Shown piece after piece: positions 5,270-57,734 of a stretch of 64,000 nt of DNA (position 1 is its first letter; every line of letters begins with the position of its first letter). Source of the DNA: an uncultured bacterium. Lineage in GTDB: Bacteria > Actinomycetota > Thermoleophilia > Solirubrobacterales > 70-9. A program made the position numbers and the translations under genes. The stretch lies in contig CAVWWY010000014.1 of assembly GCA_963758865.1 (NCBI GenBank), forward strand, positions 39,581 to 103,580, written 5' to 3'. A model generated the notes under the pieces. It searched no databases and was not told where the DNA came from. It worked only from the letters and a program-made list of their open reading frames with translations.

Positions 5270-7624
5270 TCAGCCGGCGGGGACGAGCTGCTCGCGAAGC
5301 TGCTTGGCCGCCTGGACCATGTTTCGCAGCGCGGGCTCGACCTCGTCCCAGGTGCGGGTCTTCAGCCCGCAATCGGGATTGACCCAGATCTGCTCCGGCT
5401 CGAGCACCTTGGCGGCGGCCTCCAGAAGCTTGGCCATCTCCTCCGCCGGCGGCACCCGCGGAGAGTGGATGTCGTAGACGCCCGGCCCGATCTTGAGCGC
5501 ATATCCGGTGCGCTCCCAGTCGTGGAGCAGCTCCATCCGGGAACGGGCCGCCTCGATCAGCAGCACGTCGGCGTCCATCTGCTGGATCTGCTCCATGATG
5601 TCCCCGAAGTCCGAGTAGCACATGTGGGTGTGGATCTGGGTCTCGTTCTTGACTCCCGCGCTCGCGACCCGGAAGCAGTGGACGGCCCACTCCAGGTAGG
5701 CATCCCAGCGGTCGCGACGAAGCGGCAGCCCCTCGCGGATGGCCGGCTCATCCACCTGGACGACCTTGATCCCCTCGGCCTCTAGGTCACCCACCTCGTC
5801 ACGGATCGCGAGCGCCAGCTGCTCGCAGGTCTCCGAGCGCGGCTGGTCGTCCCGCACGAATGACCATTGCAACATGGTCACCGGGCCGGTGAGCATGCCC
5901 TTGACGGGCTTCTCGGAGAGCGACTGCGCGAAGGCGATCCAATCCGTCGTCATCGGCTGAGGCCGGTTGACGTCGCCGAAGATGATCGGCGGGCGCACAT
6001 AACGTGAGCCGTAGGACTGCACCCACGCGTTCTGGGTGAAGACGTACCCCTCCATCTGCTCGGCGAAGTACTGGACCATGTCGTTGCGCTCCGGCTCGCC
6101 GTGGACGAGCACGTCGAGCCCGACCTCCTCCTGGAAGCGGATCACCCGCTCGATCTCCGAGCGCATGCGACGGTCATAAGCCGTTCGGTCGATCTTGCCC
6201 TCGCGCAGCTCGGCCCGTGCCTGCCGGATCTCGGCCGTCTGTGGGTAGGAGCCGATCGTCGTGGTCGGAAACAGCGGCAGGCCGAGACGGTCGCGCTGGG
6301 CCTCGCGGCGGATCTCGAACGGGCTCTGGCGGCTGGCCGCTTCATCCGTCAGCGCGGCGACCCGGTCGCGGACACCTGGGTTGCGGGTGCGATGGGAGTT
6401 TCGGCGGTCCTCGAGAGCCCGGTCGTTGGCATCGAGCTCGCCGGCGATCGCCTCCCGTCCGTGACCCAGCCCACGTGCGAGCGTCGCGACCTCGCCGACC
6501 TTCTGCTTGGCGAAGGCCATCCACGAGCGCAGCTCGTCGTCGAGCACGTCCGAGGGCGGCTCGGCGTCGAGGTCGACAGGGCTGTGAAGAAGCGAGCAGG
6601 ACGTGGAGACGACCAGCTCCGCGCATCGATCCCGCACGCCACCGAGCAGGTCGAGGCTGTGCTCGAGCTCGTTGATCCAGACATTGCGGCCGTCGACGAT
6701 GCCCGCGAAGAGCCACTTGTCCTCGAGCCCGCCCTCGTCGGCGATCAGCTCGACGTTCTTCGGCCCCTCGCGCTCCATGACGCCGGGGACATCGGCTCCC
6801 CCGCGGTGAAAGTCCAGCCCGATCCCCTCGACGGGCAGATCCCGAAGCACGCCGTAGGCGTCCCCCACGTGGTCGAAGTAGGTCTTGACCAGGATTCGAG
6901 TGCGCTCGTGGACCTTTGCCAGCTCCTCGTAGGCAAGCCGAAGCGCGTCCAGCTCCCGCTCCGATCGGTCCTGCACGAAGCAGGGCTCGTCGAGCTGCAC
7001 CCAGGTGGCTCCCTGCTGGGCGAGGCGCTCGATCACCTCGCCGTAGACCTCGAGCAGCGGCTCGATCAGGCTCAGGCGGTCGTAGTCCTCCGGGACGCCT
7101 TCCGCGGACTTGCCCAGCAACAGGAAGGACACGGGGCCCAGGATCACCGGCACGGTGTCGACCCCCACCTCCTCCATCGCCTCGGAGTGCTCGTCGAAGG
7201 GCTTCGCCGATGCAAGGGTGAAGGTGGTCTCGGGACCGAGCTCGGGGACGATGTAGTGGTAGTTGGTGTCGAACCACTTGGTCATCTCCATGGCGGTCAC
7301 GTCCACCCCGCCCTCCTGGCGACCCCGCGCCATCGCGAAGTAGGTGTCGAGCGCGACCGACTCGGTGACCGCTCCGTAGCGCTTCGGCACCGCGCCCACG
7401 AGGGCGATCGCGTCGAGAACGTGGTCATACAACGAGAAGTCGTTGGAGGGGATCAGGTCGATCCCGGCCTCCTGCATCCCTCGCCAGTTCTCAAGCCGAA
7501 TCCGCTTCGCGACGGCCAGCAGCTCCTCCTCGGAGGCCTCACCGCGCCAATAGCCCTCCAGCGCGAACTTGAGCTCGCGCTTCGGGCCGATCCGCGGGAA
7601 GCCTGCGACGTTCGAAAGAGCCAT
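5270..7624 (-). CDS. metE: 5-methyltetrahydropteroyltriglutamate-homocysteine S-methyltransferase (cobalamin-independent methionine synthase)
   Basis: Intact 784-aa ORF. N-terminal GFPRIGPKRELKFALEGYW. C-terminal Zn-site region HTHMCYSDF and NPDCGLKTR. Two Meth_synt halves of typical MetE length. Confidence 0.95.
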   Translation of the reverse strand: MALSNVAGFPRIGPKRELKFALEGYWRGEASEEELLAVAKRIRLENWRGMQEAGIDLIPSNDFSLYDHVLDAIALVGAVPKRYGAVTESVALDTYFAMARGRQEGGVDVTAMEMTKWFDTNYHYIVPELGPETTFTLASAKPFDEHSEAMEEVGVDTVPVILGPVSFLLLGKSAEGVPEDYDRLSLIEPLLEVYGEVIERLAQQGATWVQLDEPCFVQDRSERELDALRLAYEELAKVHERTRILVKTYFDHVGDAYGVLRDLPVEGIGLDFHRGGADVPGVMEREGPKNVELIADEGGLEDKWLFAGIVDGRNVWINELEHSLDLLGGVRDRCAELVVSTSCSLLHSPVDLDAEPPSDVLDDELRSWMAFAKQKVGEVATLARGLGHGREAIAGELDANDRALEDRRNSHRTRNPGVRDRVAALTDEAASRQSPFEIRREAQRDRLGLPLFPTTTIGSYPQTAEIRQARAELREGKIDRTAYDRRMRSEIERVIRFQEEVGLDVLVHGEPERNDMVQYFAEQMEGYVFTQNAWVQSYGSRYVRPPIIFGDVNRPQPMTTDWIAFAQSLSEKPVKGMLTGPVTMLQWSFVRDDQPRSETCEQLALAIRDEVGDLEAEGIKVVQVDEPAIREGLPLRRDRWDAYLEWAVHCFRVASAGVKNETQIHTHMCYSDFGDIMEQIQQMDADVLLIEAARSRMELLHDWERTGYALKIGPGVYDIHSPRVPPAEEMAKLLEAAAKVLEPEQIWVNPDCGLKTRTWDEVEPALRNMVQAAKQLREQLVPAG

Positions 7625-7649
7625 CGAAGGCTGAGGCTAACAGCAGAGG

Positions 7650-7849
7650 GATATGAGGAGCTTCAGCTCCGAAACAGGCGTGTAAGGGCGCCGCAGGCGC
7701 CCGCAAGGTATTCGAGATATGAGGAGCTTCAGCTCCGAAACAGGCGTGTAAGGGCGCCGCAGGCGCCCGCAAGGTATTCGAGATATGAGGAGCTTCAGCT
7801 CCGAAACAGGCGTGTAAGGGCGCCGCAGGCGCCCGCAGGCGTATTCAGG
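7650..7849 (+). repeat. Tandem array of three 66-bp units of a double-hairpin intergenic repeat (core ~55 nt)
   Basis: ATATGAGGAGCTTCAGCTCCGAAACAGGCGTGTAAGGGCGCCGCAGGCGCCCGCAAGGTATTCGAG starts at 7651, 7717 and 7783. Units 1 and 2 are identical; unit 3 differs at its 3' end. Hairpins are GGAGCT-TC-AGCTCC and GGGCGCC-GCA-GGCGCCC. Confidence 0.95.
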
Positions 7850-7858
7850 CCGGGGCGA

Positions 7859-8749
7859 TCAGCGCAACGGGGCGAAACGCTCGCGCGCCAGGGCGAGCAG
7901 CGCCTTCGCTGCCGGCGCCTGCCGATGCCCGGCGCGCGCCACGAGGGAGACCGGGACCCAGAGCCGCTTGGGGGAGAGCGACCGCACGACCACCGGCGGG
8001 CCATCGACCTCGGCATAGGATCGGGGCAGCACCCCGACCCCGAGGCCACGCGACACAAGCGCCCTCACCGACTCCGGGACGAGGGTCTCGACCGCGATCC
8101 GTGGGTCGACCGCGGCATCCGCGAACGCCTCGTCGGTGACCCGCCGCAGGGCGGATCCCTCCTTGAAGGTGACCAGGGGCCGCTCCGCGAGGTCGGCAAT
8201 CCGCAGGCGCTTTTTCTCGGCGAGCCCGTCGCGGGGGGCGAAGACGGCGACGATCTCCTCACGGAAGAGGACCTCCGCCTCGAGCTCCGGGCCGGCGTCG
8301 TCTGGGCCGATGAGGGCGAACGCGAAGTCCAGCTCCCCTGCCCGCAGGACGTCTCGCATCGGCCCCCAGAGCTCCTCTCGAAGCTGGATCTCGACGCCCG
8401 GGTGACGCTTTCGGAAGTCCGCGAGCAGCCCGGGTATGTCCAGCGGAGGCAGGGGCAGGCTGCCGACCGCGACCCGCCCCCGCGCGAGCCCCGTCAGATC
8501 GTCGATCTCGGCCCGCGCGGCTTCGACCTCGGCCAGCACCCGCTGAGCGCGCGGCAGCAGCAGCTCGCCTGCCTCGGTCAGGGCGACCTGGCGGGTCGTC
8601 CGCGACAGGAGCTCGATCCCCAGCTCGCGCTCCAGCTGGCGGACCTGCTGCGAGAGCCCGGGCTGCGCCACATGGAGCTCCTCGCTGGCGCGCGTGAAGT
8701 GGCGGTGGCGTGCGACAGCGGCGAAGTAGCGAAGCTGGCGAAGCTCCAT
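7859..8749 (-). CDS. LysR-family transcriptional regulator
   Basis: MELRQLRYFAAVARHRHFTRASEELHVAQPGLSQQVRQLE is a typical LTTR wHTH, followed by a substrate-binding domain. Start taken at the internal ATG (8749) of ORF 7859-8917. Confidence 0.9.
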   Translation of the reverse strand: MELRQLRYFAAVARHRHFTRASEELHVAQPGLSQQVRQLERELGIELLSRTTRQVALTEAGELLLPRAQRVLAEVEAARAEIDDLTGLARGRVAVGSLPLPPLDIPGLLADFRKRHPGVEIQLREELWGPMRDVLRAGELDFAFALIGPDDAGPELEAEVLFREEIVAVFAPRDGLAEKKRLRIADLAERPLVTFKEGSALRRVTDEAFADAAVDPRIAVETLVPESVRALVSRGLGVGVLPRSYAEVDGPPVVVRSLSPKRLWVPVSLVARAGHRQAPAAKALLALARERFAPLR

Positions 8750-13739: not shown

Positions 13740-14403
13740 GCTCGACCCCGCGTGGCAGCGCCGCGATCCCGAGGCGCGCGCGGAGGATAAACGGGAGTTC
13801 CTCGCCGCCTGCGAGGACTTCGTGGAGGATCGCTCGCTTCGCGCCTACTCCACGGTGGGCACGCGTGGCGACACCGACCTCCTCCTGCTCTCCCAAAGCC
13901 CCGACCTCGAGGACATCCACACCTTCCACGTGGTGCTGTCGCAGAGCGGGCTCGCGAAGTGGATGGCGATTCCACACTCCTACCTGGCCATGACCAAGCG
14001 GTCCCCTTACTCGGACTCGGAGGCCCGGCCCGAGCTCTGCACGTCGGACCGTCGCTACCTGTTCGTCTACCCGTTCGAGAAAAAGCGGGAGTGGTACCGC
14101 CTGCCGGCCTCCGAGCGGCAGCGGATCATGAGCGATCACATCGCGATCGGCCGCCGCTATCCCGAGATCGCGATCAACACCGCGTACTCATTCGGGCTGG
14201 ACGATCAGGAGTTCGTGGTCAGCTTCGAGGCCGACGAGCCCGGAATGTTCCTGGACCTGGTGCAGGAGCTCCGGGGGTCCGAGTCGAGCTCGTACACGCT
14301 CCGGGACACCCCGATCTTCACCTGCGTCGCGATGTCCACCGCGAAGGCGCTCGACGCGCTCGATGGCGCCGCGACGGCACGGGGCGACCCCGTGCTCTCC
14401 TGA
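13702..14403 (+). CDS. hemQ: Coproheme decarboxylase (chlorite dismutase-family HemQ/ChdC)
   Basis: Typical HemQ sequence: FAKFTFLKLDP, YLFVYPFEKKREWYRLP, ERQRIMSDHIAIGRRYPEIAINTAYSFGLDDQEFVVSFE. Start at the second ATG of ORF 13672-14403. Confidence 0.85.
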   Translation: MPDRTFAKFTFLKLDPAWQRRDPEARAEDKREFLAACEDFVEDRSLRAYSTVGTRGDTDLLLLSQSPDLEDIHTFHVVLSQSGLAKWMAIPHSYLAMTKRSPYSDSEARPELCTSDRRYLFVYPFEKKREWYRLPASERQRIMSDHIAIGRRYPEIAINTAYSFGLDDQEFVVSFEADEPGMFLDLVQELRGSESSSYTLRDTPIFTCVAMSTAKALDALDGAATARGDPVLS

Positions 14404-14438
14404 GGCCGACGGCCCTCCGGCACTAGAGTTCCCGCGTC

Positions 14439-16976: not shown

Positions 16977-16994
16977 AGTCCTGGATTGTAGAGG

Positions 16995-17240
16995 TCAATC
17001 CGGGTACTTCCAGTCGAGGAACTGGAGGATCCGCTTGGAGTCACAAACGACCTCGTCGCCATCGACCAGCACGGGGACCCGCCGCTGTCTCGTGAGCTCC
17101 TCGATTTCGGGGCGATTCGCGCGCCTGTACGGGACCCGTTCGGTCCTGTACCCGACGCCGAGCTTCTCCAGGCGCCTGGCCACGGCGCCGCAGGGGCAGA
17201 GGACGTTGGTCCGGTTCGGGCACCGGTAGAGGACGATCAT
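16995..17240 (-). CDS. Glutaredoxin-like / GST-N thioredoxin-fold protein
   Basis: MIVLYRCPNRTNVLCPCGAVARRLEKLGVGY...VPVLVDGDEVVCDSKRILQFL. Its ATG overlaps the upstream stop (ATGA), suggesting translational coupling with the SDR gene. Confidence 0.7.
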   Translation of the reverse strand: MIVLYRCPNRTNVLCPCGAVARRLEKLGVGYRTERVPYRRANRPEIEELTRQRRVPVLVDGDEVVCDSKRILQFLDWKYPD

Positions 17241-22015: not shown

Positions 22016-22873
22016 TCAGACGCTCAGCTCCTCGGTCTCCGGCCAGCGGTAGGCGTCGGGCCGGCGGTTGGCAAGCGACGGAAGCGTCGCGCGCACCCGG
22101 CTCTGGGCCTCGAGGTCGAGCTCCGCCGCGATGAAGCATTCCTCGTCGGGCGCCTGCGCAAGGACGACGCCCCAGGGGTCCAGGATCATCGAGCGTCCGT
22201 AGGAGCGGTAGTGGGGCGGCGCCTCGCCGATCTGGTTCGGCGCGACCACGAATGCCTGGTTCTCGATCGCGCGAGCGCGAAGCAGGACCTCCCAGTGATC
22301 CCGTCCGGTATCCAGCGTGAACGCCGACGGCACGGTGATCACCGTCGCCCCGCGCACGGCGAGGATCCGGTAGAGCTCCGGAAAGCGAAGGTCGTAGCAG
22401 ACGGTCATCCCTAGGGTGACGCCCTCGAGCCCGCCGAGCAGGGCGGACGTCACCACCTCGCTGCCGGGCTCCTCGTGCGCCGACTCGCGATAGGCGATCC
22501 CGCCGACGTCGACGTCGAACATGTGGATCTTCCGGTAGACGGCCTCGACCTCGCCGCCGGGACCGATCAGGGCCGAGGTGTTGAACGCCTTCTCCTGACC
22601 CTCGACGCGCTCCGCGATGCTGCCGGCGACTATGTGGATGCCCAGCTCGCGCGCCCACGAGCGCGTTGCGCCGATCGTCGTCCCCTCGAGCGGCTCGGCC
22701 CCCTCGAGGAGCGCCGCTGAATCGCCGAGCAGGTTCCACTTCTCCGGCAGCACGACCAGCGCGGCGCCGTCGCGCGCCGCGGCGCGGACGAGTCGCTCGG
22801 CAACCTCGAGGTTGCGAGCCTTGTCGGCCGTCGAGTTGAGCTGTACGGCGCCAGCGCGCATCCCGATCTCCAT
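22016..22873 (-). CDS. Carbon-nitrogen hydrolase (nitrilase superfamily, omega-amidase-like)
   Basis: Catalytic triad context: VLPEKWN (Glu), YRKIHMF (Lys), GMTVCYDLRFPE (Cys). Start taken at MEIGMRAG. The longer ORF to 22942 runs into the intergenic repeat. Confidence 0.85.
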   Translation of the reverse strand: MEIGMRAGAVQLNSTADKARNLEVAERLVRAAARDGAALVVLPEKWNLLGDSAALLEGAEPLEGTTIGATRSWARELGIHIVAGSIAERVEGQEKAFNTSALIGPGGEVEAVYRKIHMFDVDVGGIAYRESAHEEPGSEVVTSALLGGLEGVTLGMTVCYDLRFPELYRILAVRGATVITVPSAFTLDTGRDHWEVLLRARAIENQAFVVAPNQIGEAPPHYRSYGRSMILDPWGVVLAQAPDEECFIAAELDLEAQSRVRATLPSLANRRPDAYRWPETEELSV

Positions 22874-22880
22874 CCGCACC

Positions 22881-22942
22881 TGAATTACTTGCGGGCGCCT
22901 TCGGCGCCCTGACATGCCTGTTTCGGAGCTAAAGCCCCTCAT
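22881..22942 (-). repeat. Single copy of the double-hairpin intergenic repeat (forward form on the minus strand)
   Basis: The reverse complement reads ATGAGGGGCTTTAGCTCCGAAACAGGCATGTCAGGGCGCCGAAGGCGCCCGCAAGTAATTCAGG. It ends 8 nt upstream of the C-N hydrolase start codon. Confidence 0.9.
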
Positions 22943-22956
22943 CCACTGACCGGCCT

Positions 22957-22972
22957 GATTGACCAGTCAATC
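22957..22972. promoter_or_regulatory. Perfect 7-2-7 inverted repeat GATTGAC-CA-GTCAATC; candidate TetR operator upstream of the hydrolase-tetR-hydrolase operon
   Basis: The palindrome is read directly from the sequence. It lies in the only intergenic region upstream of an operon that encodes a TetR regulator. The function is inferred. Confidence 0.35.
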
Positions 22973-23037: not shown

Positions 23038-23907
23038 TCAGCCGCGGGGCGGCGGCTCGCGACGGCCAAGGCCCAGCGCCCGGCGCATCACCCGGTCGAA
23101 GACGCGGGTCGGCAGAAGCGCCTGGGCCGCGATCATCCCTCGCGCGTCGGCCCCCACCACGTAGCGGGCGCGGGGCCGCCGCGCGGTCAGCGCCCGCTCG
23201 ACCACTCGCGCCACCCGCTCGGGCTCCATTCCGCGCTCCCCCGTGCGGGCGGCGGCCGCCAGGGCCGCACGGGCATCCTCGCCATAGACCTCCTTCATCG
23301 CGGCCGACATATCGGAGGTCATGCTCTCCCCGTGTTCCCGGCCTCGCTCCCAGATCGCCGTCTTGATGCTGCCGGGCTCGACCGCGCAAACGTCCACCCC
23401 GGCGCCGGCGAGCTCGCGACGGAGCGCATCCGAGATGCCCTCCAGGCCGAACTTGGCGGCGTGATAGGGGCCCATGAAGGGCGTCGCCACACGGCCCCCC
23501 ACGGAGGTCACGTTGATGATCCGGCCCTGAGCGCGGCGAAGGGATGGCAAGAGAGCCTGCGTGACCGCGATCTGGCCCACGAGGTTGACCTCGAGCTGGC
23601 GCCGCAGGTCCTCGATCGGCAGCGCCTCCACCGGCCCCGGGACCACGATGCCCGCATTGTTGACGAGGCCCCAGAGGCCCTCCGGCCCGACGGCCTCGTC
23701 CACCCTGGTCGCGGCGCCGGCGATCTCGTCAGCGTCGGTGACGTCTAGCCGCAGGGGCTCGAGCTCGCCCCTTGCCTCGGATGCAAGCTGGATGGCGTCC
23801 GCCTCCTTCCGGTACCCGGCGAACACCCGAAATCCGGTTCGGGAGAGTCGCAGCGCGCAGGCGCGGCCGATCCCGCTCGACGCCCCGGTGATCACAACCG
23901 CCCTCAC
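23038..23907 (-). CDS. Short-chain dehydrogenase/reductase (classical SDR)
   Basis: VVITGASSGIGRA, NNAG, YHAAKFGLEG (YxxxK). Intact 289 aa. Confidence 0.9.
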   Translation of the reverse strand: MRAVVITGASSGIGRACALRLSRTGFRVFAGYRKEADAIQLASEARGELEPLRLDVTDADEIAGAATRVDEAVGPEGLWGLVNNAGIVVPGPVEALPIEDLRRQLEVNLVGQIAVTQALLPSLRRAQGRIINVTSVGGRVATPFMGPYHAAKFGLEGISDALRRELAGAGVDVCAVEPGSIKTAIWERGREHGESMTSDMSAAMKEVYGEDARAALAAAARTGERGMEPERVARVVERALTARRPRARYVVGADARGMIAAQALLPTRVFDRVMRRALGLGRREPPPRG

Positions 23908-23978: not shown

Positions 23979-24668
23979 TCAGCCTCGGCGACCACTCTGT
24001 CGCTCGAGCTCGGCGACCAGCAGCTTGGTGTGGAGGGCCGCGATCAGGTCGTTCAGCGGGCCGACCCCGGCCTCGACGATCTCCAGGGCGCGATCGGGAT
24101 CGAGGTCGCCGGCGAGGCGCTGGGTGAGCACCTCCACCTCCTCGGCGACCAGCGGGCCGAGCGCCTCCTTGTAGCGCAGCGTGTCGTAGACGGTGAACCC
24201 CAGGCGCTCGTCGTATCCCCCCGCGCGGAACCGAGTGATCGCCTCGATGATCCGCACGTCGGAGGGCGAGTATCCGACACTGTCGGGGCTGAGGATCTCG
24301 AGCTCCGCCAGGCGGTCGAGGACCTCCGGGGGGATCTCGTAGCGGTCGCGGACCTCCTGTGCCGGGATTCGCTCACGCTCGCCGACCAGCGCCCGCTCGA
24401 GGATGCGATCCTCGAGCTCGATCATCGCCCGCAGCCGCTCCGGCTCCGCGTCCTCTCGCTCGAGCAGCTCCCGGATCACTCGCAGGGGCATGAACCGCTC
24501 CTCCTGGAGCTGCTTGATCACCCGGATCCTGTCGACGAACTCCGGCGCGTAATAGGCCATGTTGCGGCTCGTCTTGACCGGCTCCGGGAGGAGCCCCTCG
24601 CGGAGGTAGTGGTGAATCGTCGCCACCGACACCCCGGAGCGCTCGGCGAGCTCGGAGATCTTGAGCAA
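23979..24668 (-). CDS. MerR-family transcriptional regulator
   Basis: LKISELAERSGVSVATIHHYLREGLL is a MerR HTH. It has a long C-terminal effector/coiled domain. Intact 229 aa. Confidence 0.85.
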   Translation of the reverse strand: MLKISELAERSGVSVATIHHYLREGLLPEPVKTSRNMAYYAPEFVDRIRVIKQLQEERFMPLRVIRELLEREDAEPERLRAMIELEDRILERALVGERERIPAQEVRDRYEIPPEVLDRLAELEILSPDSVGYSPSDVRIIEAITRFRAGGYDERLGFTVYDTLRYKEALGPLVAEEVEVLTQRLAGDLDPDRALEIVEAGVGPLNDLIAALHTKLLVAELERQSGRRG

Positions 24669-24716: not shown

Positions 24717-25956
24717 TCACGCGAGGAAGCTCCCCTGTTCGGCTGCCTGATTGAGGCCGGCCGCGGCGCCGCTCTCGATCAGTCCCGCGACCTCGTCGTC
24801 GGCGAACCCCGCCTCGCGGAGCACCTCCTCGGTGTGCTCGCCCAGCGCGGGCGCTGGCCGCTCCACGCCTCCCGGCGTGCGCGAGAGCTTCACCGGCACG
24901 CCGAGCTGGCGCACCGGGCCCAGCCGCGGCTGCTCGAGCTCGACCACCATCTCGCGCTGTCGCACGAGCTCGGAATCGAGCGCCTCATCCAGGTCCAGGA
25001 CGGGCTCGATCATCGCGTCGTGCTCGTCGTTGAACGCCCGCCACTCCTCCCTGGTGCGGGACCGAAACACATCGGCGATCTGGTGCCCGTCCTCCGAATC
25101 GGGGGACGCGAACTGCTTGTCGATCAGGTCGGGACGCCCGACCCCGTTGCAGAAGTTCTGCCAGAACTTGGGCTCCAGCGCGCCGCAGGTGACGTACCCG
25201 TCCGCAGCCTCGTACGGCAGGTAGCAGGCGAACGCCCCGGTGAGCGATCCGCGGCCGCGCTGGGGTACGACCCCGTCGCACAGGTACTGGGCCGCCACCA
25301 TCGCGAGCCAGGCAAGCGACCCGTCGGTCATCGACACGTCCACGAGCTGCCCCTCCCCCGAGCGCTCGCGCTCGCGAAGCGCCGCCATGACGCCGAAGGC
25401 AGCCATCAGCGCGCCGCCGCCGATGTCGGCGATCTGGCCGGCGGACTGGATCGGCGCGGCCTTCGGGCTCGCCGGTGAGGCCGAGCAGGCCGTTCAGGCC
25501 GAGGTAGTTCATGTCGTGGCCGGCGCGATCGGTGTTCGGTCCCGTCTGACCGTAGCCGGTGATCGCGCAATAGACGATTCCGGGGTTGGCCCGGCGGAGC
25601 GCGTCGTAGCCGCACCCGAGCCGGTCGAGGACCCCGGGCCGAAAGCTCTCCAGCACGACGTCGAATTCGCCGGCCAGCCTCAGCATCGCGTCGCGGCCGG
25701 CCTCGGACTTCAGGTCGAGCCGGATCGAGCGCTTGCCGCGATTCAGCGCCAGGTAGAGGGCGGAGCGGGTCCCCAGCGCCTGGTCGGACTCGGAGCCGTA
25801 GTACGGCGGCGCCCAGCGGACGTAGTCCCCCATCGCCGTGTCCTCGACCTTCACGACGTCCGCGCCGAAGTCGGCCAGCAGGAGCGAGCAGAACCCGCCT
25901 GGGAGCAGCCTCGTTAGGTCCAACACCCGGATGTCGCTGAGGGCGCGAGCGCTCAT
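24717..25956 (-). pseudogene. CaiB/BaiF family III CoA-transferase; one frame break
   Basis: N-terminal half [37 protein letters not shown] in ORF 24985-26421. C-terminal half in ORF 24717-25406. Break near 25430. ATGA overlap with the upstream gene. Confidence 0.8.
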
Positions 25957-26893
25957 TCCGGCGAGGCCTCGGATGCCTCGATCGGATGCGAGAGCACCTC
26001 GCGCCGGGTCGGCGCCTCCCGGTTCGGCACGCCCAGCATCTCCCGCGCCTCGGCGACCGTCGCCGCCCGCCGGCCCACGTCCTCTGCCATCTGGCGGGCC
26101 TTGGCGATCAGGTCTCCGTTCGACCGCGCCATCTCGCCATCGGGCAGATAGAAGTTGTCCTCGAGGCCGGCGCGGACGTTGCCCCCGAGCGCCAGCGCCG
26201 CGCCGATCAGCCTCCACTGGTCGCGGGAGATCCCGATCACCTGCCAGTTGTTTGGTCCCTCGCCGCCACCGGGGATCTGCTCGGCCATGAACGCCACGTT
26301 TCTCGCGTTGGGGCGGATGCCGCCGTTGACCCCGATCACCAGCGAGACGTTCAACGGCTCTGCGAGCAGCCCCATGTCGATCAATGGATCGAGGTTCGCG
26401 ATGTGGCCGGCGTCGAAGCATTCGTGCTCGGGCCTGATCCCCAGCTCGCGCATCTCGGTGAGGAACTCGATGATCGTGTCGAAGCTGTTCTCGAACACCG
26501 CCTTGAACACGAACTCCTTGCGCCGGCGGGAGTACTTGGCGTAGTTCATGGAGCTCATGTTCAGCGCGGCCACGTCGGGTCGCAGCTCCCGCAGGTAGGC
26601 GATCCGCTTGTCGATCGGCACCCCGATGGCGCCGGTTGAGTAGTTGACGATCACGTCGTCGACCTCGGCCCGGATCGCCTCGGTGATCGCGCGGAAGTCG
26701 TCGATCTCGTAGCTCGGCACGCCATCCGGCGTCCGGGCGTGGATGTGGATCTGCACCCGCCCTCGTCGACGATCCGCCGAGCCTCCGCGGCGTACTCCTC
26801 CGGCGTATAGGGGATCGCCGGACACTGGTCGCGGTTGGCGATTGCGCCGCTGATCGTGCAGGACAGGATCACCGGGTTTTCGAACCGGCTCAT
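25953..26893 (-). pseudogene. Beta-keto acid cleavage enzyme family (BKACE/DUF849, 3-keto-5-aminohexanoate cleavage enzyme-like); one frame break
   Basis: N-terminus [39 protein letters not shown] (ORF 26651-26935). Then [45 protein letters not shown] (ORF 25953-27002). Break near 26760. Confidence 0.75.
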
Positions 26894-36755: not shown

Positions 36756-36795
36756 TGGCCCCTGAGGCTCGGCCCGGGGCGTCCACGGTCGAGTC

Positions 36796-43824: not shown

Positions 43825-44525
43825 GTTCGCCTTCCACGGCTCAGGTACGCCCTGGCGATGTCGCGGAGCTGCACGCCGCGATGCAGGAATCCGCCGAGGG
43901 TGCGCCCGGTCGCCCGATGCTCGAGGTCGAGCTCGATCTCGCACAGCCTGTAGCCGGCCCGCACCGCGTCGACGGTCATCGCCGTCTCCAGCCCGTAGCC
44001 GGGAGCCAGAGGCAAGAGGTCGCGCAACACGGCGGCGCGCATGGCCCGCTGGCCCGAGATGGGCGCCACGGCGCGGTAGCCGCAGCGACGCTCGATCGCC
44101 CAGCGCGCGAAGCCCAGCGTCAGCCCGAAGCCACCACCCACCCGGTTGCGAAACACCGCCACGGCGAGATCGCACGCACCACGGTCAACCGCGGCCACGA
44201 GACCTCGAAGCTCGACCGCCGAGGCCCCGAGGTCGGCGTCGCAGAGCAGGAACACCGGCGACTCGGTACCCGAGCCCGTGCCGAGCGCGGCCTCGGCCGC
44301 GGCCGTCACGTTGGCCCCCTTTCCGTGGGGGCGACGCCGGCTGACGATCTGGGCCCCGCGGGCCAGCGCCACCTCGGACGTGCCATCGGCCGACGCGTCG
44401 TCGGCGACCACCACGTGGGCGCTCGGAAACGCCCGTGCGAGTGCGTCGAGGGTCGCGCCGATCCGGTCGGCCTCGTTGTGCGCCGCGACGATCACCACCG
44501 GCTCTCGTGTCCGTTCGGTGTGCAA
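43821..44525 (-). CDS. GT2-family glycosyltransferase (glucosyl-3-phosphoglycerate-synthase-like size)
   Basis: VVIVAAHNEADRIGATL, VVADDASADGT, LLCDADL (DxD). Intact 234 aa. Confidence 0.75.
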   Translation of the reverse strand: MHTERTREPVVIVAAHNEADRIGATLDALARAFPSAHVVVADDASADGTSEVALARGAQIVSRRRPHGKGANVTAAAEAALGTGSGTESPVFLLCDADLGASAVELRGLVAAVDRGACDLAVAVFRNRVGGGFGLTLGFARWAIERRCGYRAVAPISGQRAMRAAVLRDLLPLAPGYGLETAMTVDAVRAGYRLCEIELDLEHRATGRTLGGFLHRGVQLRDIARAYLSRGRRT

Positions 44526-44594
44526 GGCCGGATATTCTCCCGCGGCCGTGTCGCGTTGTCACAAGCCCCGCCGGCGATCGGGCCCCTCGAGGTC

Positions 44595-44810
44595 ATGAGC
44601 ATCGACGTCCAGGCCCACATCACCGGGACCGTGTGGAAGATCGAGGTCGGGGTCGGCGACCGGGTGGACGAGGGCGAGACGGTCGTGATCCTCGAGTCGA
44701 TGAAGATGGAGATGCCGGTCGAAGCGGAGGACCCGGGGACCGTCAAGGAGATCAAGTGCGAGGAGGGCCAGTCGGTCCAGGAGGGCGACGTCCTGGTCGT
44801 CCTGGAATGA
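44595..44810 (+). CDS. Stand-alone biotinyl/lipoyl-domain protein (BCCP-like, 71 aa)
   Basis: ITGTVWKIEVGVGDRVDEGETVVILESMKMEMPVEA carries the E(A/S)MKM biotinylation motif. Confidence 0.85.
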   Translation: MSIDVQAHITGTVWKIEVGVGDRVDEGETVVILESMKMEMPVEAEDPGTVKEIKCEEGQSVQEGDVLVVLE

Positions 44811-45653
44811 GCTCGCATGCGGCGTCCCCGCCAGGGGGCGAAGCCGCGGGCTCCCAACTCGCGGCCGGGAAGCTGGTCCTGGACCACCCGGCCGATGCGG
44901 TCGCAAGGCTCACGATCCGCAACCCCGAGCGGCGAAACGCCCTCGACCACGACATCCTGGACGCGCTGTCCGAGGTCCTGCCGACGCTCGACCGCGGGAT
45001 CGAGGTCCGATGCGTGGTGATCACCGGGGCCGGTGACATCTTCTCCGCGGGCTACGACATCGCCGGCATCCCCCAGGAGACCTTCGCCGCCGACGCGGAG
45101 GCGCTGGTGGCCCACCCGTTCCACGCCGCGATGGAGGCGATCAGCGCGCATCCCTATCCGGTGCTCGCGGCGATCAACGGGCACTGCCTCGGCGGCGGCC
45201 TTGAGCTCGCGGTTCGCTGTGACCTGCGCCTTTCCGTAATGGGGGCGAAGCTCGGCATGCCGCCCGCGAAGCTGGGGCTGATCTACGGCCACACCGGCCT
45301 CCAGAAGTTCATCGACGTGGTCGGGCTACGCCCGCACCAAGGAGCTGTTTCTCACCGGGCGCAACCTGAGCGCACCACGGGCGATGGCGATCGGCCTGAT
45401 CCACGACACGGTCCCAGAGGGAAAGCTCGAGGCATCGGCGCTCGAGCTGGCATCCGAGATCGCGGCCAACGCCCCGCTGTCCGCGCGCGGCAACAAGCAT
45501 GCGATCGAGACGCTCAATTCCTATCCCCGCCTCACTCCCGAGCAGGAGCGGGAGCTGATCGAGCTGCGCCGCTCGTGCTTTGAGTCGGAGGACTTTCGCG
45601 AGGGGGTCAGGGCGTTCGCGGAGAAGCGACGCCCGAAGTGGCGCGGGCGCTAG
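44807..45653 (+). pseudogene. Crotonase-family protein (methylmalonyl-CoA decarboxylase/enoyl-CoA hydratase-like); one frame break
   Basis: ATGA overlap with the BCCP gene. Motifs RLTIRNPERRNAL, ITGAGDIFSAGYD, GHCLGGGLELAVRCD. The C-terminal 89 aa are in ORF 45384-45653 (FAEKRRPKWRGR). Break near 45325. Confidence 0.8.
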
Positions 45654-45664
45654 CCCCTCCGGTA

Positions 45665-45726
45665 ATGAGGAGCTTTAGCTCCGAAACAGGCGTGTCAGGG
45701 CGCCGAAGGCGCCCGCAAGAGATTCC
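45665..45726 (+). repeat. Single copy of the double-hairpin intergenic repeat
   Basis: ATGAGGAGCTTTAGCTCCGAAACAGGCGTGTCAGGGCGCCGAAGGCGCCCGCAAGAGATTCC, located between convergent genes. Confidence 0.9.
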
Positions 45727-45755
45727 TTGTCGCTGAGCCTCGAGTGAGCCAGGGC

Positions 45756-47228
45756 TCACGGCACTGGATCCGGATGATGGACCCGACAGGTCGCGCCCGC
45801 GCACTGCTTCAGCTGGTGGAGGCGGTTGGTCAGCACGGACTTGACGGACGCATAGGCCGCGGCCTTGTGGCGGCTCTGGAGCTCGTACGGGTCGATCTGC
45901 AGGTCGTAGAGCTCCTTCTCGCCGGTGTTGTGCTCCGCGTAGATGTAGCGCTCCGTCCGAATCGCCTTGAAGCTCGGCTCCTCGATCAGGAGCTCGCGGT
46001 CGCGCTCGATCCCCGGGTGCTTCGCCACCGGGATCAGCGAGCGTCCATCCATGGTCACGCCGCCGTGGTTGGCGTTGGCCACGTCGACGATCGTCGGCGC
46101 CAGGTCGGCGTTGATCACCAGGGGATCGACGCTCACTCCCTGCGGGATACCCGGGCCGCGCATCTCGAGCGGCACCCGGATCGACTCCTCATACAGGTGC
46201 ATCTTGTCGGTCGGGATGCGGTGCTCGCCATGGAAGTAGCCGTTGTCGGAGGTGTAGACGAACACTGTGTTGTTGAACTCGCCCTTGGCCTTCAGGGCAT
46301 CGACGACCTTCTTGACCCCCTCATCGACGGACAGCAGCGATTCGAGCTCGCACCGGTATTTGCGCTGGACGGTCCCGATCTGGGTCGGACTCAGACGCGG
46401 CTGATCGCGGATCTTCTTGGGCTTGTCGGAGACATCGGCCTCGTTGAAGTCGGGCGGCATCGGCAGCGGCTCGGAGTTGAACGCGTCGGCGTGGCGCGGC
46501 GCCGGCTTCGCGGCGTCCACGCAGTTCTGCGGGGGGTTCGGATTGGGCGGCCCGCCGGCGTGCGGGGCCGTGTAGGTGAGCCAGAGGAAGAACGGCTGTG
46601 CCTTCGGCGCCCGGCGGTCGACCAGGTCCACCGCCTTCCTGGTCAAGACGTCCTGCTTGAAGTCGGCCGGGTCCTGGCCATACTCGACCAGACGGCCGTC
46701 GTTGTTGATCGGGTAGGTGTAGACCCTCTGGTCGTACGGGGCGGCGGCATGCCACTCCGACCAGCCGGGAGGCACGGGGGGATGGTTGCTATAGGCGTTC
46801 AGGTACTTGCCGATCATCGCGGTGTAGTAACCGGCCCGCTCGAGCCACACCGCGAGGTTGTCGTCTCCGTGCAGCGCCCGGAAGCGGGGGTAGCCGCCGT
46901 TCGGCGGCTGGTTGGAGAGCACGCGGTGGTTGTGCGCGTACTGGCCGGTGAGGAAGGTGGCGCGCGAGGGGCAGCAGAGGGAGAAGTTGACGAAGCTGTT
47001 GGTGAACGTCACCCCCTGATCGCCGATCAGCGAGTTGACGTTGTCCATCACCTTCATCGACTCGAGCGTCTGGTCGTCGGACATGACCACGACTACGTTC
47101 GGCCGGCTCTGCGCCGCGGTCGCCTGGACAGGGCTCGACGGGCTCGTGCCCGAGCCCGACACCGCCAAGGCGACGACTACGCCCAGTGCCAACGAGATCG
47201 CTGTAAGGAGACGCCCCCGCCTTCCCAT
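45756..47228 (-). CDS. Cys-type sulfatase (GlcNAc-6-sulfatase-like), secreted; paralogue 1, intact
   Basis: Signal peptide. Motifs NVVVVMSDDQ, formylglycine motif CCPSRATFLTGQ, TSDNGYFHGEH. Intact 490 aa. Confidence 0.9.
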   Translation of the reverse strand: MGRRGRLLTAISLALGVVVALAVSGSGTSPSSPVQATAAQSRPNVVVVMSDDQTLESMKVMDNVNSLIGDQGVTFTNSFVNFSLCCPSRATFLTGQYAHNHRVLSNQPPNGGYPRFRALHGDDNLAVWLERAGYYTAMIGKYLNAYSNHPPVPPGWSEWHAAAPYDQRVYTYPINNDGRLVEYGQDPADFKQDVLTRKAVDLVDRRAPKAQPFFLWLTYTAPHAGGPPNPNPPQNCVDAAKPAPRHADAFNSEPLPMPPDFNEADVSDKPKKIRDQPRLSPTQIGTVQRKYRCELESLLSVDEGVKKVVDALKAKGEFNNTVFVYTSDNGYFHGEHRIPTDKMHLYEESIRVPLEMRGPGIPQGVSVDPLVINADLAPTIVDVANANHGGVTMDGRSLIPVAKHPGIERDRELLIEEPSFKAIRTERYIYAEHNTGEKELYDLQIDPYELQSRHKAAAYASVKSVLTNRLHQLKQCAGATCRVHHPDPVP

Positions 47229-55222: not shown

Positions 55223-56353
55223 TCAGCGGGCTCCGAGGTTGGCCCGCAGGTCGAGCACCCGCTGAGCCGACCGCTCGAACCGCTGCCTGCCGAGTCGGCC
55301 CGAGCGCAGCTTGCGACGCAACACCCGCTGCGCGTGCAGGGCGCCGCGGTAGTCCGTGAACAGCAGCAGGTCCGCGCCCGCGCGGGCGGCCGCGAATCCC
55401 GCCTTGCCCGGCCCGCCGAAGCTCCGCGCCGCGACGGTCTCCAGCGCGTCCGTGATCGAGACCCCGCGAAACCCCAGCCGGTTTCGCAGTTCCCCGGTGG
55501 CGATCCGCGCGGTGAAGGCGGCGGGGCGGTGCGAGAAGCTGGTGTAGATCGCGGTGCTGATCATCACCATGTCGCCCTTGCGAGCGACCAGCTTCTCGTA
55601 GGGCCGCTCGTCGATCCGCCGCAGACGCGACCGTGGCAGGCGGATTCGCTGGACCGCGACATCGGTGTTCTCGAAAGCAGCGCCCAGCCCGGGGAAGTGC
55701 TTGGCGGTGGCGGCGACTCCCCGCTGCTCGAGCGCCGCCGCGAAGGGAATCGCCGTCTTGATCACGCGGCCGGGGTGGGACCCGAAGCTTCGGCGCTCCG
55801 CGCGAATCGCGCTTCCATGCCGGCCCACGTCCAGGACCGGCGCCAGATCGACGTTCACCCCGACGCGTTTCAGGCTTCGCGCCGTCCTCTTTCCCTGCCG
55901 CCGGCTGTAGGCCTTGCCGCGCCGGCCCATCTTCGCGGCGGAGGCCCCGGGTGGACCGGGCAGCCGCTTCACGAGACCACCTTCCTGGTCGATCATCACC
56001 AGCATCGGGTTGCGCAGCCCGCGCGGGCGCCTGATCCGTTGCAGACGGCGGATCAGCCGCCTTGCATGGTGGCGACTCCCCAAGTTGTCGTCGAACAGGA
56101 TCACGCCCGCCAGCCGACCCCGATGGATCGCCCGCTCGAGCCGCCCGGGGATCCGGCCACCCTCGAATCCGGCGATCAGCCGCTGGCCGGCAAGCTCCGC
56201 CGCGCTGAGGTCGCGAGCGTCCGCCACCCTCTCGCTCGCGTCGCCGGCGCCATCAGTTCCGTCCGCGAGGACGATCCAAAGCGCCCCGGCGATCGCCCCG
56301 AGGCCGAGCAGCGCAACCGCCCGCCGCCTCCAGAAGGTCAGCTTCCCGGGCAA
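55223..56353 (-). CDS. Glycoside hydrolase family 3 N-terminal-domain protein (NagZ/beta-hexosaminidase-like), membrane-anchored or secreted
   Basis: MIDQEGGLVKRL, NVDLAPVLDV, KHFPGLG. TTG start at 56353. Intact 376 aa. Confidence 0.8.
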   Translation of the reverse strand: MPGKLTFWRRRAVALLGLGAIAGALWIVLADGTDGAGDASERVADARDLSAAELAGQRLIAGFEGGRIPGRLERAIHRGRLAGVILFDDNLGSRHHARRLIRRLQRIRRPRGLRNPMLVMIDQEGGLVKRLPGPPGASAAKMGRRGKAYSRRQGKRTARSLKRVGVNVDLAPVLDVGRHGSAIRAERRSFGSHPGRVIKTAIPFAAALEQRGVAATAKHFPGLGAAFENTDVAVQRIRLPRSRLRRIDERPYEKLVARKGDMVMISTAIYTSFSHRPAAFTARIATGELRNRLGFRGVSITDALETVAARSFGGPGKAGFAAARAGADLLLFTDYRGALHAQRVLRRKLRSGRLGRQRFERSAQRVLDLRANLGAR

Positions 56354-56410
56354 GGGAGCAATCGTACGCCGAGTGACGCCTATTTCCGCGCTGACTGTGC
56401 CTCATCTTCC

Positions 56411-56472
56411 TGAATCACTTGCGGGCGCCTTCGGCGCCCTGACACGCCCCTTTCGGAGCTAAAGCTCCTCAC
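56411..56472 (-). repeat. Single copy of the double-hairpin intergenic repeat (forward form on the minus strand)
   Basis: The reverse complement reads GTGAGGAGCTTTAGCTCCGAAAGGGGCGTGTCAGGGCGCCGAAGGCGCCCGCAAGTGATTCAGG. It lies in the divergent GH3/bioB intergenic region. Confidence 0.9.
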
Positions 56473-56528
56473 CCAATAAGCGGCGTCCGGACGGCGGCCT
56501 AGCCTGGTGTCCCGGCCATGACTCCCAG

Positions 56529-57734
56529 ATGGCTGATCCCACGATCCCGCGCCGCCCCCGGATGTCGTCGCTGATCACCTTCGACGAAGCGATGGCGCTG
56601 GGCGAGCTCTCGACCCAGGCCGAGATCATGGCGCTCATCGAGCGCGCCTGGGAGGCGCGGACGGAGCGCTTCGGCGACTCCACCGACATGTGCTCGTTGG
56701 TGAACGCAAAGTCCGGCGGGTGCGCGGAGGACTGCGGATTCTGCGCCCAGTCGCGGTACTCGGAGGCCGACACGCCGATGCACGCGATGATGGACCCGGA
56801 CCAGATCCTCGAGCACGCCAGGGCGGCGGAGGCGGCCGGGGCGCACCGGTTCTGCATGGTCACCCAGGGCCAGGGGTTGTCCAAACGCGACTTCGAGAAG
56901 GTTGTCGAGGGGGCGAAGCTGGTCGCCGAGCACACGAACCTGAAGCGCTGCGCCTCGATCGGGCACATCTCGGCCGAGCGCGCCCAGCGCCTCGCCGACG
57001 CAGGCATCCAGCGCGTGCATCACAACGTCGAAACGTCACGCTCCTACTACCCGGAGGTCTCGACCACGGTTCGCTACGAGGGTCGCGTCCGCACGATTGA
57101 CGCCGTCAAGGAAGCGGGGCTCGAGACCTGCGTCGGCGGAATTCTCAACCTCGGCGAGACGCCTCGCCAGCGGGTGGAGATGGCCTTCGAGCTCTCGGAG
57201 ATCAACCCCACGTCGGTGCCGATCAACCTCCTCAACCCGCGGCCGGGCACCAAGTTCGGCGACCGGACGCTGATGGACCCCTGGGAGGTCGTCAAGTGGG
57301 TGGCGATCTTCCGGCTGATCCTTCCCGATGCCCTGTTCCGGCTCTGCGGCGGGCGAGTCGAGAACCTGGACGAGCTCCAACCGCTGGCCGTCAAGGCGGG
57401 CCTGAACGGGGTAATGATGGGCAATTTCCTGACCACGCTGGGCGCGGAGCCCGCGGACGACCGGGCGATGTTCGAGGAGCTGGGGCTGAACGTGGCCCGG
57501 CAGCCCGACAACGGCGCCAACCCGCGGCCCGACAACCGGGCCGGCCGACTCGAGGGCTCCACGCCGGCCACGCCGATCGACGCGCTGATCGACAGCCAGG
57601 CCGAGGCGAACTTCTGGGATCCCTCGACGCAGCTGCGCGTGGTCAAGACGCGTCGCAAGCCGCCCCCCTATCCCGGGCCGGCCTCGGGCGCGGACGAAGG
57701 CGCCCTCGACCAGCCGGCGGGCTGGGGAGACTAG
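56529..57734 (+). CDS. bioB: Biotin synthase
   Basis: Radical-SAM CAEDCGFCAQS, plus GAHRFCMV, VHHNVETS and CVGGILNLGE. Intact 401 aa with a Pro-rich C-terminal tail longer than the E. coli enzyme. Confidence 0.93.
   Translation: MADPTIPRRPRMSSLITFDEAMALGELSTQAEIMALIERAWEARTERFGDSTDMCSLVNAKSGGCAEDCGFCAQSRYSEADTPMHAMMDPDQILEHARAAEAAGAHRFCMVTQGQGLSKRDFEKVVEGAKLVAEHTNLKRCASIGHISAERAQRLADAGIQRVHHNVETSRSYYPEVSTTVRYEGRVRTIDAVKEAGLETCVGGILNLGETPRQRVEMAFELSEINPTSVPINLLNPRPGTKFGDRTLMDPWEVVKWVAIFRLILPDALFRLCGGRVENLDELQPLAVKAGLNGVMMGNFLTTLGAEPADDRAMFEELGLNVARQPDNGANPRPDNRAGRLEGSTPATPIDALIDSQAEANFWDPSTQLRVVKTRRKPPPYPGPASGADEGALDQPAGWGD

Follow-up and report, generated by a model that had tools for sequence, protein, structure and literature searches.

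A putative MIRU-like family of small two-hairpin repeats at gene junctions of Solirubrobacterales

Among the described systems closest to the element treated here are the interspersed repetitive units of mycobacteria (MIRUs), reportedly introduced by Supply et al. in 1997, and the TRIT motif, a tuberculosis Rho-independent terminator motif said to have been described by Gardner et al. in 2011. MIRUs are repeats of 40-100 bp that lie in mycobacterial operons as single units or in variable tandem arrays (PMC12548453; PMC3184786; PMC4213456). They seem to be mobile, some sites being filled and others empty and direct repeats of 4 nt being present (PMC12548453; PMC3184786). Insertion takes place at start codons and couples an internal open reading frame (ORF) with a spacing of -4, "with minimal impact on expression" (PMC12548453; PMC3184786; PMC4213456). 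TRIT is a conserved, structured palindrome of Mycobacterium that is linked to stop codons (PMC3152330). Here we describe an element of about 60-66 nt found in a 64-kb stretch of DNA from an uncultured bacterium of the Solirubrobacterales (contig CAVWWY010000014.1; the whole stretch of 64,000 nt is referred to as the window). Judged by sequence comparison, it appears to represent a new family of small interspersed intergenic bacterial repeats, which would be MIRU-like in its working and falls outside the Rfam families. On balance, we take it to be a non-autonomous insertion module of the MIRU kind that has spread through the Solirubrobacterales and persists mainly at gene junctions.

The window carries six copies, three in a tandem array of 66-bp units (7651-7848, plus strand) and three as single copies (22879-22944 on the minus, 45663-45728 on the plus and 56409-56474 on the minus strand). 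A covariance model (R1) built from 145 related copies scored the six at 78.7-87.9 bits (E 1e-29 to 1e-33). The next match in the window, at 24287-24341, reached 13.9 bits and was taken as chance since it lies inside coding sequence. A reading made earlier from the letters alone (the sequence-only reading) had reported the array and single copies at 22881-22942 (minus), 45665-45726 (plus) and 56411-56472 (minus), and all were located as it had claimed. Tandem Repeats Finder returned one array (7650-7846, period 66, 3.0 copies, 98% matches, score 378), which reads out as three units, head-to-tail. In a window with a G+C content of about 70%, the 17-nt palindrome forming the second hairpin was matched eight times at up to two mismatches, compared to 0.69 expected, and none of 100 shuffles gave as many; six of the matches are exact. 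The strictly intergenic position ascribed to all six copies was upheld by our own codon-bias gene calls and by Pfam checks.

Along its length the element consists of R-TGA, a hairpin P1, a conserved linker, a GC-rich hairpin P2 and a tail. In the numbering of the model (1-66), positions 1-3 are N-N-R and 4-6 TGA, P1 (7-20) reads GGNGC, loop YUUA, GCNCC, the linker (21-35) GAAA-SNR-GC-R-UGU-M-A, and the tail (53-63) GCARG-NN-AUUC. P2 (36-52) occurs with either 7 bp (GGSSGCC, loop G-N-A, GGCSSCC) or 6 bp (GGCGGC, loop GAA, GCCGCC). In unit 1 of the array (7651-7716, plus strand; R1 84.4 bits, E 1.1e-31) an ATG (7653-7655) overlaps the TGA (7654-7656), P1 pairs 7657-7661 with 7666-7670 around the loop TTCA, the linker GAAACAGGCGTGTAA (7671-7685) ends with TAA (7683-7685), P2 pairs 7686-7692 with 7696-7702 around the loop GCA, and the tail GCAAGGTATTCGAG occupies 7703-7716. 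Unit 2 (7717-7782, plus strand; 84.4 bits), likewise delimited by both R1 and Tandem Repeats Finder, is identical to unit 1, and unit 3 (7783-7848, plus strand; 78.7 bits) differs from the other two in its tail, GCAGGCGTATTCAG.

Structure statistics were obtained from an alignment of 145 sequences (A1). Standard pairs occupy 99.6% of 1699 pair cells, five pairs covary with 189 cells changed on both sides, and the covariation score of 0.275, compared to 0.058 in shuffled alignments, was reached by none of 500 shuffles. When the 3′ partners were slid as a control, pairing fell to 36-45%. At the middle pair of P1, 63 copies have A-U, 46 G-C and 32 U-A. RNAalifold recovered the same two hairpins with no third helix, and mutual information revealed no covarying pair outside P1 and P2; a third helix or pseudoknot between linker and tail was rejected accordingly. 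The search patterns dictated some of the invariant columns and left the covarying ones and positions 51-55 unconstrained, and 17 copies that fall outside both seed patterns show the same conserved features. Wobble pairs (5 G.U cells compared to 3 A.C cells) are too few to tell on which strand the hairpins act. The two stem-loops and the differences between copies, including a G.U pair in P1 of the 22879-22944 copy, are those already described from the letters, and the stems proved to be preserved in the larger alignment.

A degenerate pattern applied to species-representative genomes gave 33 loci, all in metagenome-assembled genomes labelled Solirubrobacterales, Actinomycetes, Actinomycetota or "uncultured bacterium", and a looser pattern gave at least 120 stretches from soil metagenomes; taken together, these sources supply more than 150 loci. 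Over the 816 kb fetched, nhmmer detected 205 copies with 179 unique sequences at 165 sites, so that further copies do exist in related genomes; 138 sites hold a single copy, 21 a doublet, 5 a triplet and one five units, the period of the tandem arrays being 63-68 nt. Collections of plasmids, phages and viral contigs contained nothing similar. The family had been called unrecognised, and this held: Rfam 15 gave nothing at gathering score across the whole window, and permissive scans of the array and of one copy with a 6-bp P2 yielded only chance matches (E at least 1.9). The literal element sequence had no match in a text search of the literature, in which no paper on Solirubrobacterales repeats turned up either.

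Filled and empty sites, paired by synteny between the window and the fetched loci (numbered L) and among the loci themselves, demonstrate that copies arise by insertion. The 22879-22944 copy is absent from L017, where the empty site reads CCGGTCAG|GTGCAGATGG, that is, CCGGTCAG|GTGC; the filled site reads CCGGTCAG-TGGATGAGG...AATTCAG-GTGC, and compared with the empty site, TCAG stands as a direct repeat of 4 nt on either side of the copy (22946-22949 and 22880-22883). Conversely, at about 16977-17008 the window is empty and both L017 and L025 are filled. The L017 element interrupts the final codons of a glutaredoxin-like gene, whose stop is now the TAG of the element, and the old codons TAC GGG CGC TGA are still present downstream of it. 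L118 holds two units straight after a stop codon at a site that is empty in the window (36756-36795), and L041 has an intact copy where the window (about 25957-26003) shows a decayed relic. At the sucC-sucD junction, the empty site of L022 is a bare overlap, GC-ATGA-GC, and the filled sites carry GGCATGAG on both sides in L073 and GTCATGAG on both sides in L150, so that flanking repeats of 6-8 nt containing ATGA (CATGAG on both sides) accompany the insertions. Finally, L007 has an antisense copy where the window (14404-14438) has none, and at 633-660, the site filled in L017 and L025, a deletion derivative that retains only the first 16 nt of the element (ATGAGGAGCTTTAGC), which is exactly the part giving the upstream gene its last codons and TAG stop. 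The empty site in the window that corresponds to the antisense insertion has an unrelated GC-rich hairpin of its own (GAGGCCGACGGCCCTC, 14392-14423, plus strand) between two plus-strand genes.

The ends of the element (R-TGAGG... and ...ATTC) are not inverted repeats, and the combination typical of MITEs, terminal inverted repeats with a fixed target duplication, was not found. Sequence identities across the junctions of single copies are variable (3-8 nt) and weakly above the shuffled control; a clear identity of the flanks is seen only within arrays, and a target-site duplication of fixed length was rejected. The sequence-only reading had seen neither terminal inverted repeats nor target-site duplications. 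The first part stood, and the second is called into question by the TCAG at the 22879-22944 copy and the repeats at sucC-sucD. Within arrays, the duplicated unit takes in 4-12 nt of the 5′ flank and copy number differs between orthologs in six groups, which argues for local tandem duplication. In two antisense copies (L127 2939-3000 and L106 7147-7202) the inserted segment opens with a tail-like stretch of 12 nt (CAAGTATTCCGG) ahead of TGAGG; a tandem or circularly permuted unit may thus have served as the source. Tail-like 5′ flanks were also noted in other copies (L033/L031, L003/L018 and perhaps the window array).

To describe the gene context, genes were called with a self-trained, crude codon-bias caller and the sites merged into 112 ortholog groups. 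Of these, 58 have the element sense to the upstream as well as the downstream gene, 10 have it antisense to both and 14 are mixed (7 of each kind); the remaining groups lack a neighbour. Between co-directional genes, 58 of 68 sites are sense after removal of orthologous duplicates. An orientation that is not constant relative to the genes, as read from the window, does not describe the family (58 sense groups against 10 antisense among 112 non-orthologous sites), the window being unrepresentative because its array belongs to the antisense minority. The element fills the intergenic space, and its contacts with the flanking genes form a layout that had been missed, consisting of the 5′ TGA with two further stops, an overlapping R-TG and a tail resembling a Shine-Dalgarno sequence. 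The upstream gene stops at the TGA (position 4) in 27 copies, at a TAG in the P1 loop in 10 and at the TAA of position 33 in 5, and since all three are used by upstream genes the element offers stops in all three frames. The remaining upstream genes mostly stop at most 27 nt upstream of it. The downstream start codon has a fixed offset of +13 or +16 from C51, is nearly always followed by A, giving RTGA, and is preceded by tails such as GCAGGAGAUUC or GCAGGUGAUUC, which we take to be complementary to the anti-Shine-Dalgarno end of 16S rRNA.

An R-TG at positions 3-5, overlapping the TGA, is present in 132 of 145 copies (ATG in 81, GTG in 51), or in 134 when TTG is counted, and the short ORF that it opens depends on the subfamily. 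In the subfamily with a 6-bp P2 (class 45, M = C) it is 20-21 codons long, and its terminal TGA overlaps the downstream start (RTGA) in 20 of 38 copies; in L141, for example, it reads MRCFSTERCVSGGEAAAGDLS followed by the stop. In the subfamily with a 7-bp P2, to which the window copies belong (class 47, M mostly A), a 10-codon ORF ends at the foot of P2 (TAA-33) in 60 of 93 copies, as in array unit 1, where it reads MRSFSSETGV and stops; only the 5′ start/stop overlap occurs here, with no double overlap. In practice the element causes mis-called ORFs, as mechanically listed ORFs begin inside it and upstream genes end inside it.

These features suggest how an insertion might be accommodated. 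In sense orientation, stops in up to three frames (the TGA of position 4, the TAG of the P1 loop and a TAA or TGA at position 33) would close the upstream ORF wherever the element lands, and the A/G-TG overlapping the TGA, the usual -4 coupling overlap, opens the short ORF, which runs over 10 codons to the foot of P2 in the 7-bp-P2 subfamily and over 20-21 codons to a second ATGA overlap with the next start in the 6-bp-P2 subfamily. The purine-rich tail (GCAGGAG or GCAGGUGAU) stands at Shine-Dalgarno distance from the start of the next gene. We infer that terminating ribosomes may re-initiate via the short ORF, so that coupling would survive the insertion. Both hairpins presumably act in the mRNA, where they may block independent initiation or protect and delimit cistrons, and they may also serve as a handle for a mobilising enzyme. 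On this reading the element is tolerated, and probably retained, in operon junctions, and its persistence there would follow from a layout compatible with operon translation, as proposed for mycobacterial MIRUs.

Retention is apparent from orthologous sites. In sense ortholog pairs the mean identity of the element is 0.92, compared to 0.81 for the flanking coding DNA and 0.67 for the worst codon phase of the flanks, and the element is more conserved than its flanks in 18 of 18 pairs; for three antisense pairs, a small sample in which the pairs are not independent, the values are 0.85 for the element and 0.83 for the flanks. P1 type, P2 class and M are the same in 14 of 14 ortholog pairs (chance 0.34), and several subfamilies coexist within single loci and genomes, so that vertical descent under constraint is indicated rather than repeated re-insertion. 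At the atpH-atpA junction P2 runs through a compensatory series (GGCCGCC/GGCGGCC, GGCCACC/GGTGGCC, GGCCGGC/GCCGGCC). As compensatory changes in the stems alter the peptide of the short ORF, selection appears to act on the nucleic acid and not on the product. The same junction shows a full unit followed by a half unit of P2 and tail only (L078 4132-4170, L032 6524-6561, L038 5973-6005), the half unit standing directly before the Shine-Dalgarno sequence and GTG start of atpA.

Several points weigh against an insertion module. A mobilising gene was not found, nor were terminal inverted repeats or a target duplication of fixed length, and the ends of the inserted segment vary. The short ORF differs by subfamily and its peptide shifts with stem changes, so that only its translation, and not its product, can matter. 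Decay of antisense copies is not supported, as those detected are no more degraded than sense copies (no difference in match scores, p = 0.6, in a test biased by the pattern seeding). The strong conservation at old orthologous sites is explained by a host function no less readily than by a selfish element, and the strongly conserved unpaired linker is left unexplained by the module. Furthermore, the context counts rest on our own gene caller, and the sampling was seeded with patterns that fix many columns, leaving only the 17 pattern-independent copies.

Part of this evidence would fit a cis-acting mRNA element of the host, a structured intercistronic module that is bound by a dedicated protein or nuclease and tunes processing, stability or relative translation, with its spread being secondary. 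Many operons would be concerned (atpH-atpA, sucC-sucD, trp and others). The slower evolution of sense copies than of flanking coding DNA in all 18 ortholog pairs, the compensatory changes in place at atpH-atpA, the strong sense bias and the conservation of unpaired nucleotides across subfamilies and genomes, also in the 17 seed-independent copies, would be expected of it, and the likeness of the two modules to each other (U-R-A, a hairpin starting with GG, then G-A/C-AA) resembles a repeated binding site. The filled and empty sites and the insertion within a coding 3′ end nevertheless show an origin by insertion, about 15% of the copies between co-directional genes are antisense, including the window array, the flanking genes are functionally unrelated, and no partner protein is known. 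We consider this explanation rather unlikely; it overlaps with that of an insertion module. Rather than tolerated junk, the element could be a structured RNA module that is recognised by a dedicated factor and serves the lineage, in dozens of housekeeping operons, as a portable "operon junction", a speculative view to which we give only limited credence. The factor could be an RNA-binding protein, a nuclease, or an enzyme that recognises the hairpins, whether in RNA or in single-stranded DNA, and carries copies of the element to new junctions. If true, a portable operon junction that sets termination, re-initiation and the processing of mRNA would amount to a kind of mobile element for post-transcriptional control that is new.

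The insertion-module reading has also to be weighed against a REP-like element that moves in single-stranded form through the action of a tyrosine HUH transposase (RAYT or IS200/IS605 TnpA) whose gene lies elsewhere in the genome, with P1 and P2 as the recognised hairpins and the cleavage sites in linker or tail. Hairpins kept by complementarity and not by sequence, the lack of terminal inverted repeats and of a regular target duplication, conserved sequence beside the hairpin feet and several subfamilies in one genome are all compatible with this view. Nevertheless, adjacent copies are all direct repeats, with no inverted doublets of the REPIN or BIME type, a conserved GTAG-type head is lacking and the ends of the inserted segment vary. 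Orientation tracks the local gene direction within the 64-kb window and not one replication strand, and no RAYT gene was seen, though the scan did not span whole genomes. We regard this mode of movement as improbable. REP/BIME-like elements were one of three options put forward in the sequence-only reading, and the lack of inverted doublets and of a GTAG-type head spoke against them; of the other two, a miniature mobile element is the best fit in view of the filled and empty sites, and the structured-RNA option survives in so far as the hairpins are under selection.

A conserved terminator or attenuator linked to stop codons in the manner of TRIT is very unlikely, although TRIT itself is a precedent from another actinobacterial group, a conserved palindromic motif of 147 copies that overlaps stop codons (PMC3152330). 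The narrow position relative to stop codons, the GC-rich hairpin and the occurrence of some copies between convergent genes (7 groups, and the 45663-45728 copy of the window) would agree with such a function. Neither hairpin is followed by a U-tract, and scanning both strands of the array for promoters and terminators revealed no site resembling either. Mycobacterial RNA polymerase needs the U-tract at intrinsic terminators. Moreover, most copies lie inside operons that need downstream expression (atpA, sucD, trpB), directly before start codons.

A small functional RNA gene, a ribozyme that cleaves itself, or a CRISPR-like or type III antitoxin-like array is scarcely credible, since the resemblance of U-G-A, stem and G-A-A-A around P1 to hammerhead domain 2 and the tandem arrays with a 63-68 nt period are set against the absence of any credible Rfam match, hammerhead included, at E up to 10, the missing CUGA half of the hammerhead core with variable positions 1-3, the repetition of whole units without spacers, the 138 of 165 sites that are single copies in unrelated contexts, and the lack of a toxin gene beside the arrays, the neighbours of the window array being metE and a LysR regulator gene. 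Hammerhead and other ribozymes were rejected on the first two of these grounds. K-turn and SECIS readings of stop codon plus hairpin were also discarded, because a conserved C-stem is lacking, upstream genes simply end there, and arrays occur with periods (65 and 68 nt) that three does not divide.

The array lies 26 nt upstream of the start of metE, which encodes the cobalamin-independent methionine synthase (5270-7624, minus strand; Pfam Meth_synt_1, E 1e-121, and Meth_synt_2, E 1e-153), and its far end is 10 nt from the stop of a LysR-family regulator gene (7859-8749, minus strand; Pfam HTH_1 and LysR_substrate); it is antisense to both. In five relatives whose MetE is 88% identical, the upstream neighbour is a glycosyltransferase/LPG-synthase gene, the spacer measures 28-73 nt and the element is missing, and the LysR gene is absent from this position as well. 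All that the window shares with them there is a conserved block, TGT(TG)TAGCCTCAGC, 9-10 nt before the metE ATG (within 7625-7650 of the window, 2480-2500 of L155 and L156, and 2485-2500 of L157), which could be the -10-like box of a near-leaderless metE transcript. No riboswitch was matched upstream of metE in Rfam. As far as the comparison of sequences goes, the array appears to be a lineage-specific insertion in the minority antisense orientation, like the LysR gene at that position, and its near-identical units suggest recent local amplification in the manner of a variable-number tandem repeat.

The three single copies of the window are each sense to at least one neighbour, as judged from the gene calls and Pfam. 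The 22879-22944 copy (minus strand, 85.6 bits) is directly upstream of a carbon-nitrogen hydrolase gene (22016-22879, minus) and downstream of a short-chain dehydrogenase gene (23038-23895, minus). Just 5′ of it, between these two genes, a perfect 7+2+7 inverted repeat GATTGAC-TG-GTCAATC (22957-22972) has the appearance of a repressor operator and is also conserved in L017; a similar ATTGACTGATCAGTCAAT adjoins the element in L067 and L065. The 45663-45728 copy (plus strand, 87.9 bits) starts 10 nt past the stop of an enoyl-CoA hydratase gene (44435-45653, plus), to which it is sense, and faces a convergent sulfatase gene (45756-47192, minus). The hydratase gene is split over two frames (ECH_1 positions 4-147 and 167-250), so that it is either a frameshifted pseudogene or the product of an assembly error. 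The 56409-56474 copy (minus strand, 86.5 bits) has the same sense as the glycoside hydrolase family 3 gene downstream of it (55223-56353, minus), with a divergent radical SAM/BATS gene (56562-57734, plus) on its other side. Directly 3′ of it, 56356-56407 (minus strand, ATGAGGCACAGTCAGCGCGGAAATAGGCGT...; R1 6.6 bits, E 2.9) is probably a decayed extra unit, an assignment that is tentative and made by eye. Equally tentative is the relic at 25957-26003 (minus strand, GAGGTGCTCTCGCATCCGATCGAGGCATCCGAGGCCTCGCCGGA; R1 6.1 bits for 25946-26004), probably a decayed element in view of the intact copy at the orthologous L041 site; the upstream ORF now continues through the stretch, which makes up its C-terminal tail, and ends in an ATGA overlap (25953-25956) with the next gene.

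To our knowledge, the movement of MIRUs and their benefit to the cell have been open questions since 1997, partly since MIRUs are few and confined to a narrow clade. The element described here may be easier to study, as it is abundant in uncultured soil Solirubrobacterales, is old enough for genomes about 20% diverged to have it at orthologous sites, covaries cleanly and comes in distinct subfamilies with many filled and empty sites. It offers comparative material for separating the features needed for insertion from those needed for operon expression, for asking whether a short ORF coupled by start-stop overlap makes an insertion translationally neutral, and for finding the gene that co-occurs with the element. 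Its variable-number arrays could in addition serve as strain markers in soil metagenomes.

Compared with other known repeats, the element is like REP, BIME and REPIN sequences in being an abundant extragenic repeat with GC-rich hairpins, often intercistronic or 3′ in operons, whose stems are kept by complementarity. REP elements can stabilise upstream mRNA. Instead of the single imperfect palindrome of 20-40 nt with a 5′ tetranucleotide head and inverted pairing that characterises REP and BIME, it has two different hairpins joined by a conserved 15-nt linker, forms direct tandems only, lacks a GTAG-type head and shows a tight link to stops and starts with a strong sense bias. The Rickettsia palindromic elements (RPEs) and ERIC/IRU are small palindromic mobile repeats that likewise survive through being compatible with expression; RPEs insert in frame into ORFs, and parts of our element similarly become C-terminal codons and stops of upstream genes, and ERICs are co-transcribed with an orientation-dependent effect on mRNA decay. 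These repeats are longer (100-150 bp), are single long palindromes of Proteobacteria and lack the built-in layout of stop, restart and Shine-Dalgarno-like tail. No unique spacers as in CRISPR or ToxI-like arrays separate the near-identical units of the window array, and it has no cas or toxin neighbour.

With TRIT the element shares a conserved structure, an actinobacterial host and a narrow position relative to stop codons, partly overlapping the coding end (PMC3152330). TRIT consists of one palindrome, largely bidirectional and placed where genes end, and is found in Mycobacterium only, whereas the present element is asymmetric, strand-biased and mostly placed inside operons before the next start; the gene-end hairpin with U-tract that marks a terminator is not seen in the array. 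The likeness to MIRUs goes further. Both are short actinobacterial intergenic repeats that occur singly or in direct tandems of variable number (arrays of 2, 3 and 5 units here) and lie between co-directional genes in gene orientation (58 against 10 groups, the window array itself being antisense). Both contain a small ORF overlapping the flanking genes at -4 (the 5′ overlap in 132 of 145 copies, the double ATGA in 20 of 38 class-45 copies), and in both, empty and filled sites with short direct repeats suggest insertion, with no transposase known. Unlike MIRUs, the element belongs to the Thermoleophilia/Solirubrobacterales rather than to Mycobacterium, and it has two distinct, strongly covarying hairpins, stops in three frames, a conserved unpaired linker and a Shine-Dalgarno-like tail. 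Moreover, genomes with about 20% divergence in their coding DNA have retained it at orthologous sites. As the likeness is one of layout as described and not of sequence alignment, we propose that the element works like a MIRU by analogy, without filing it as a member of that family.

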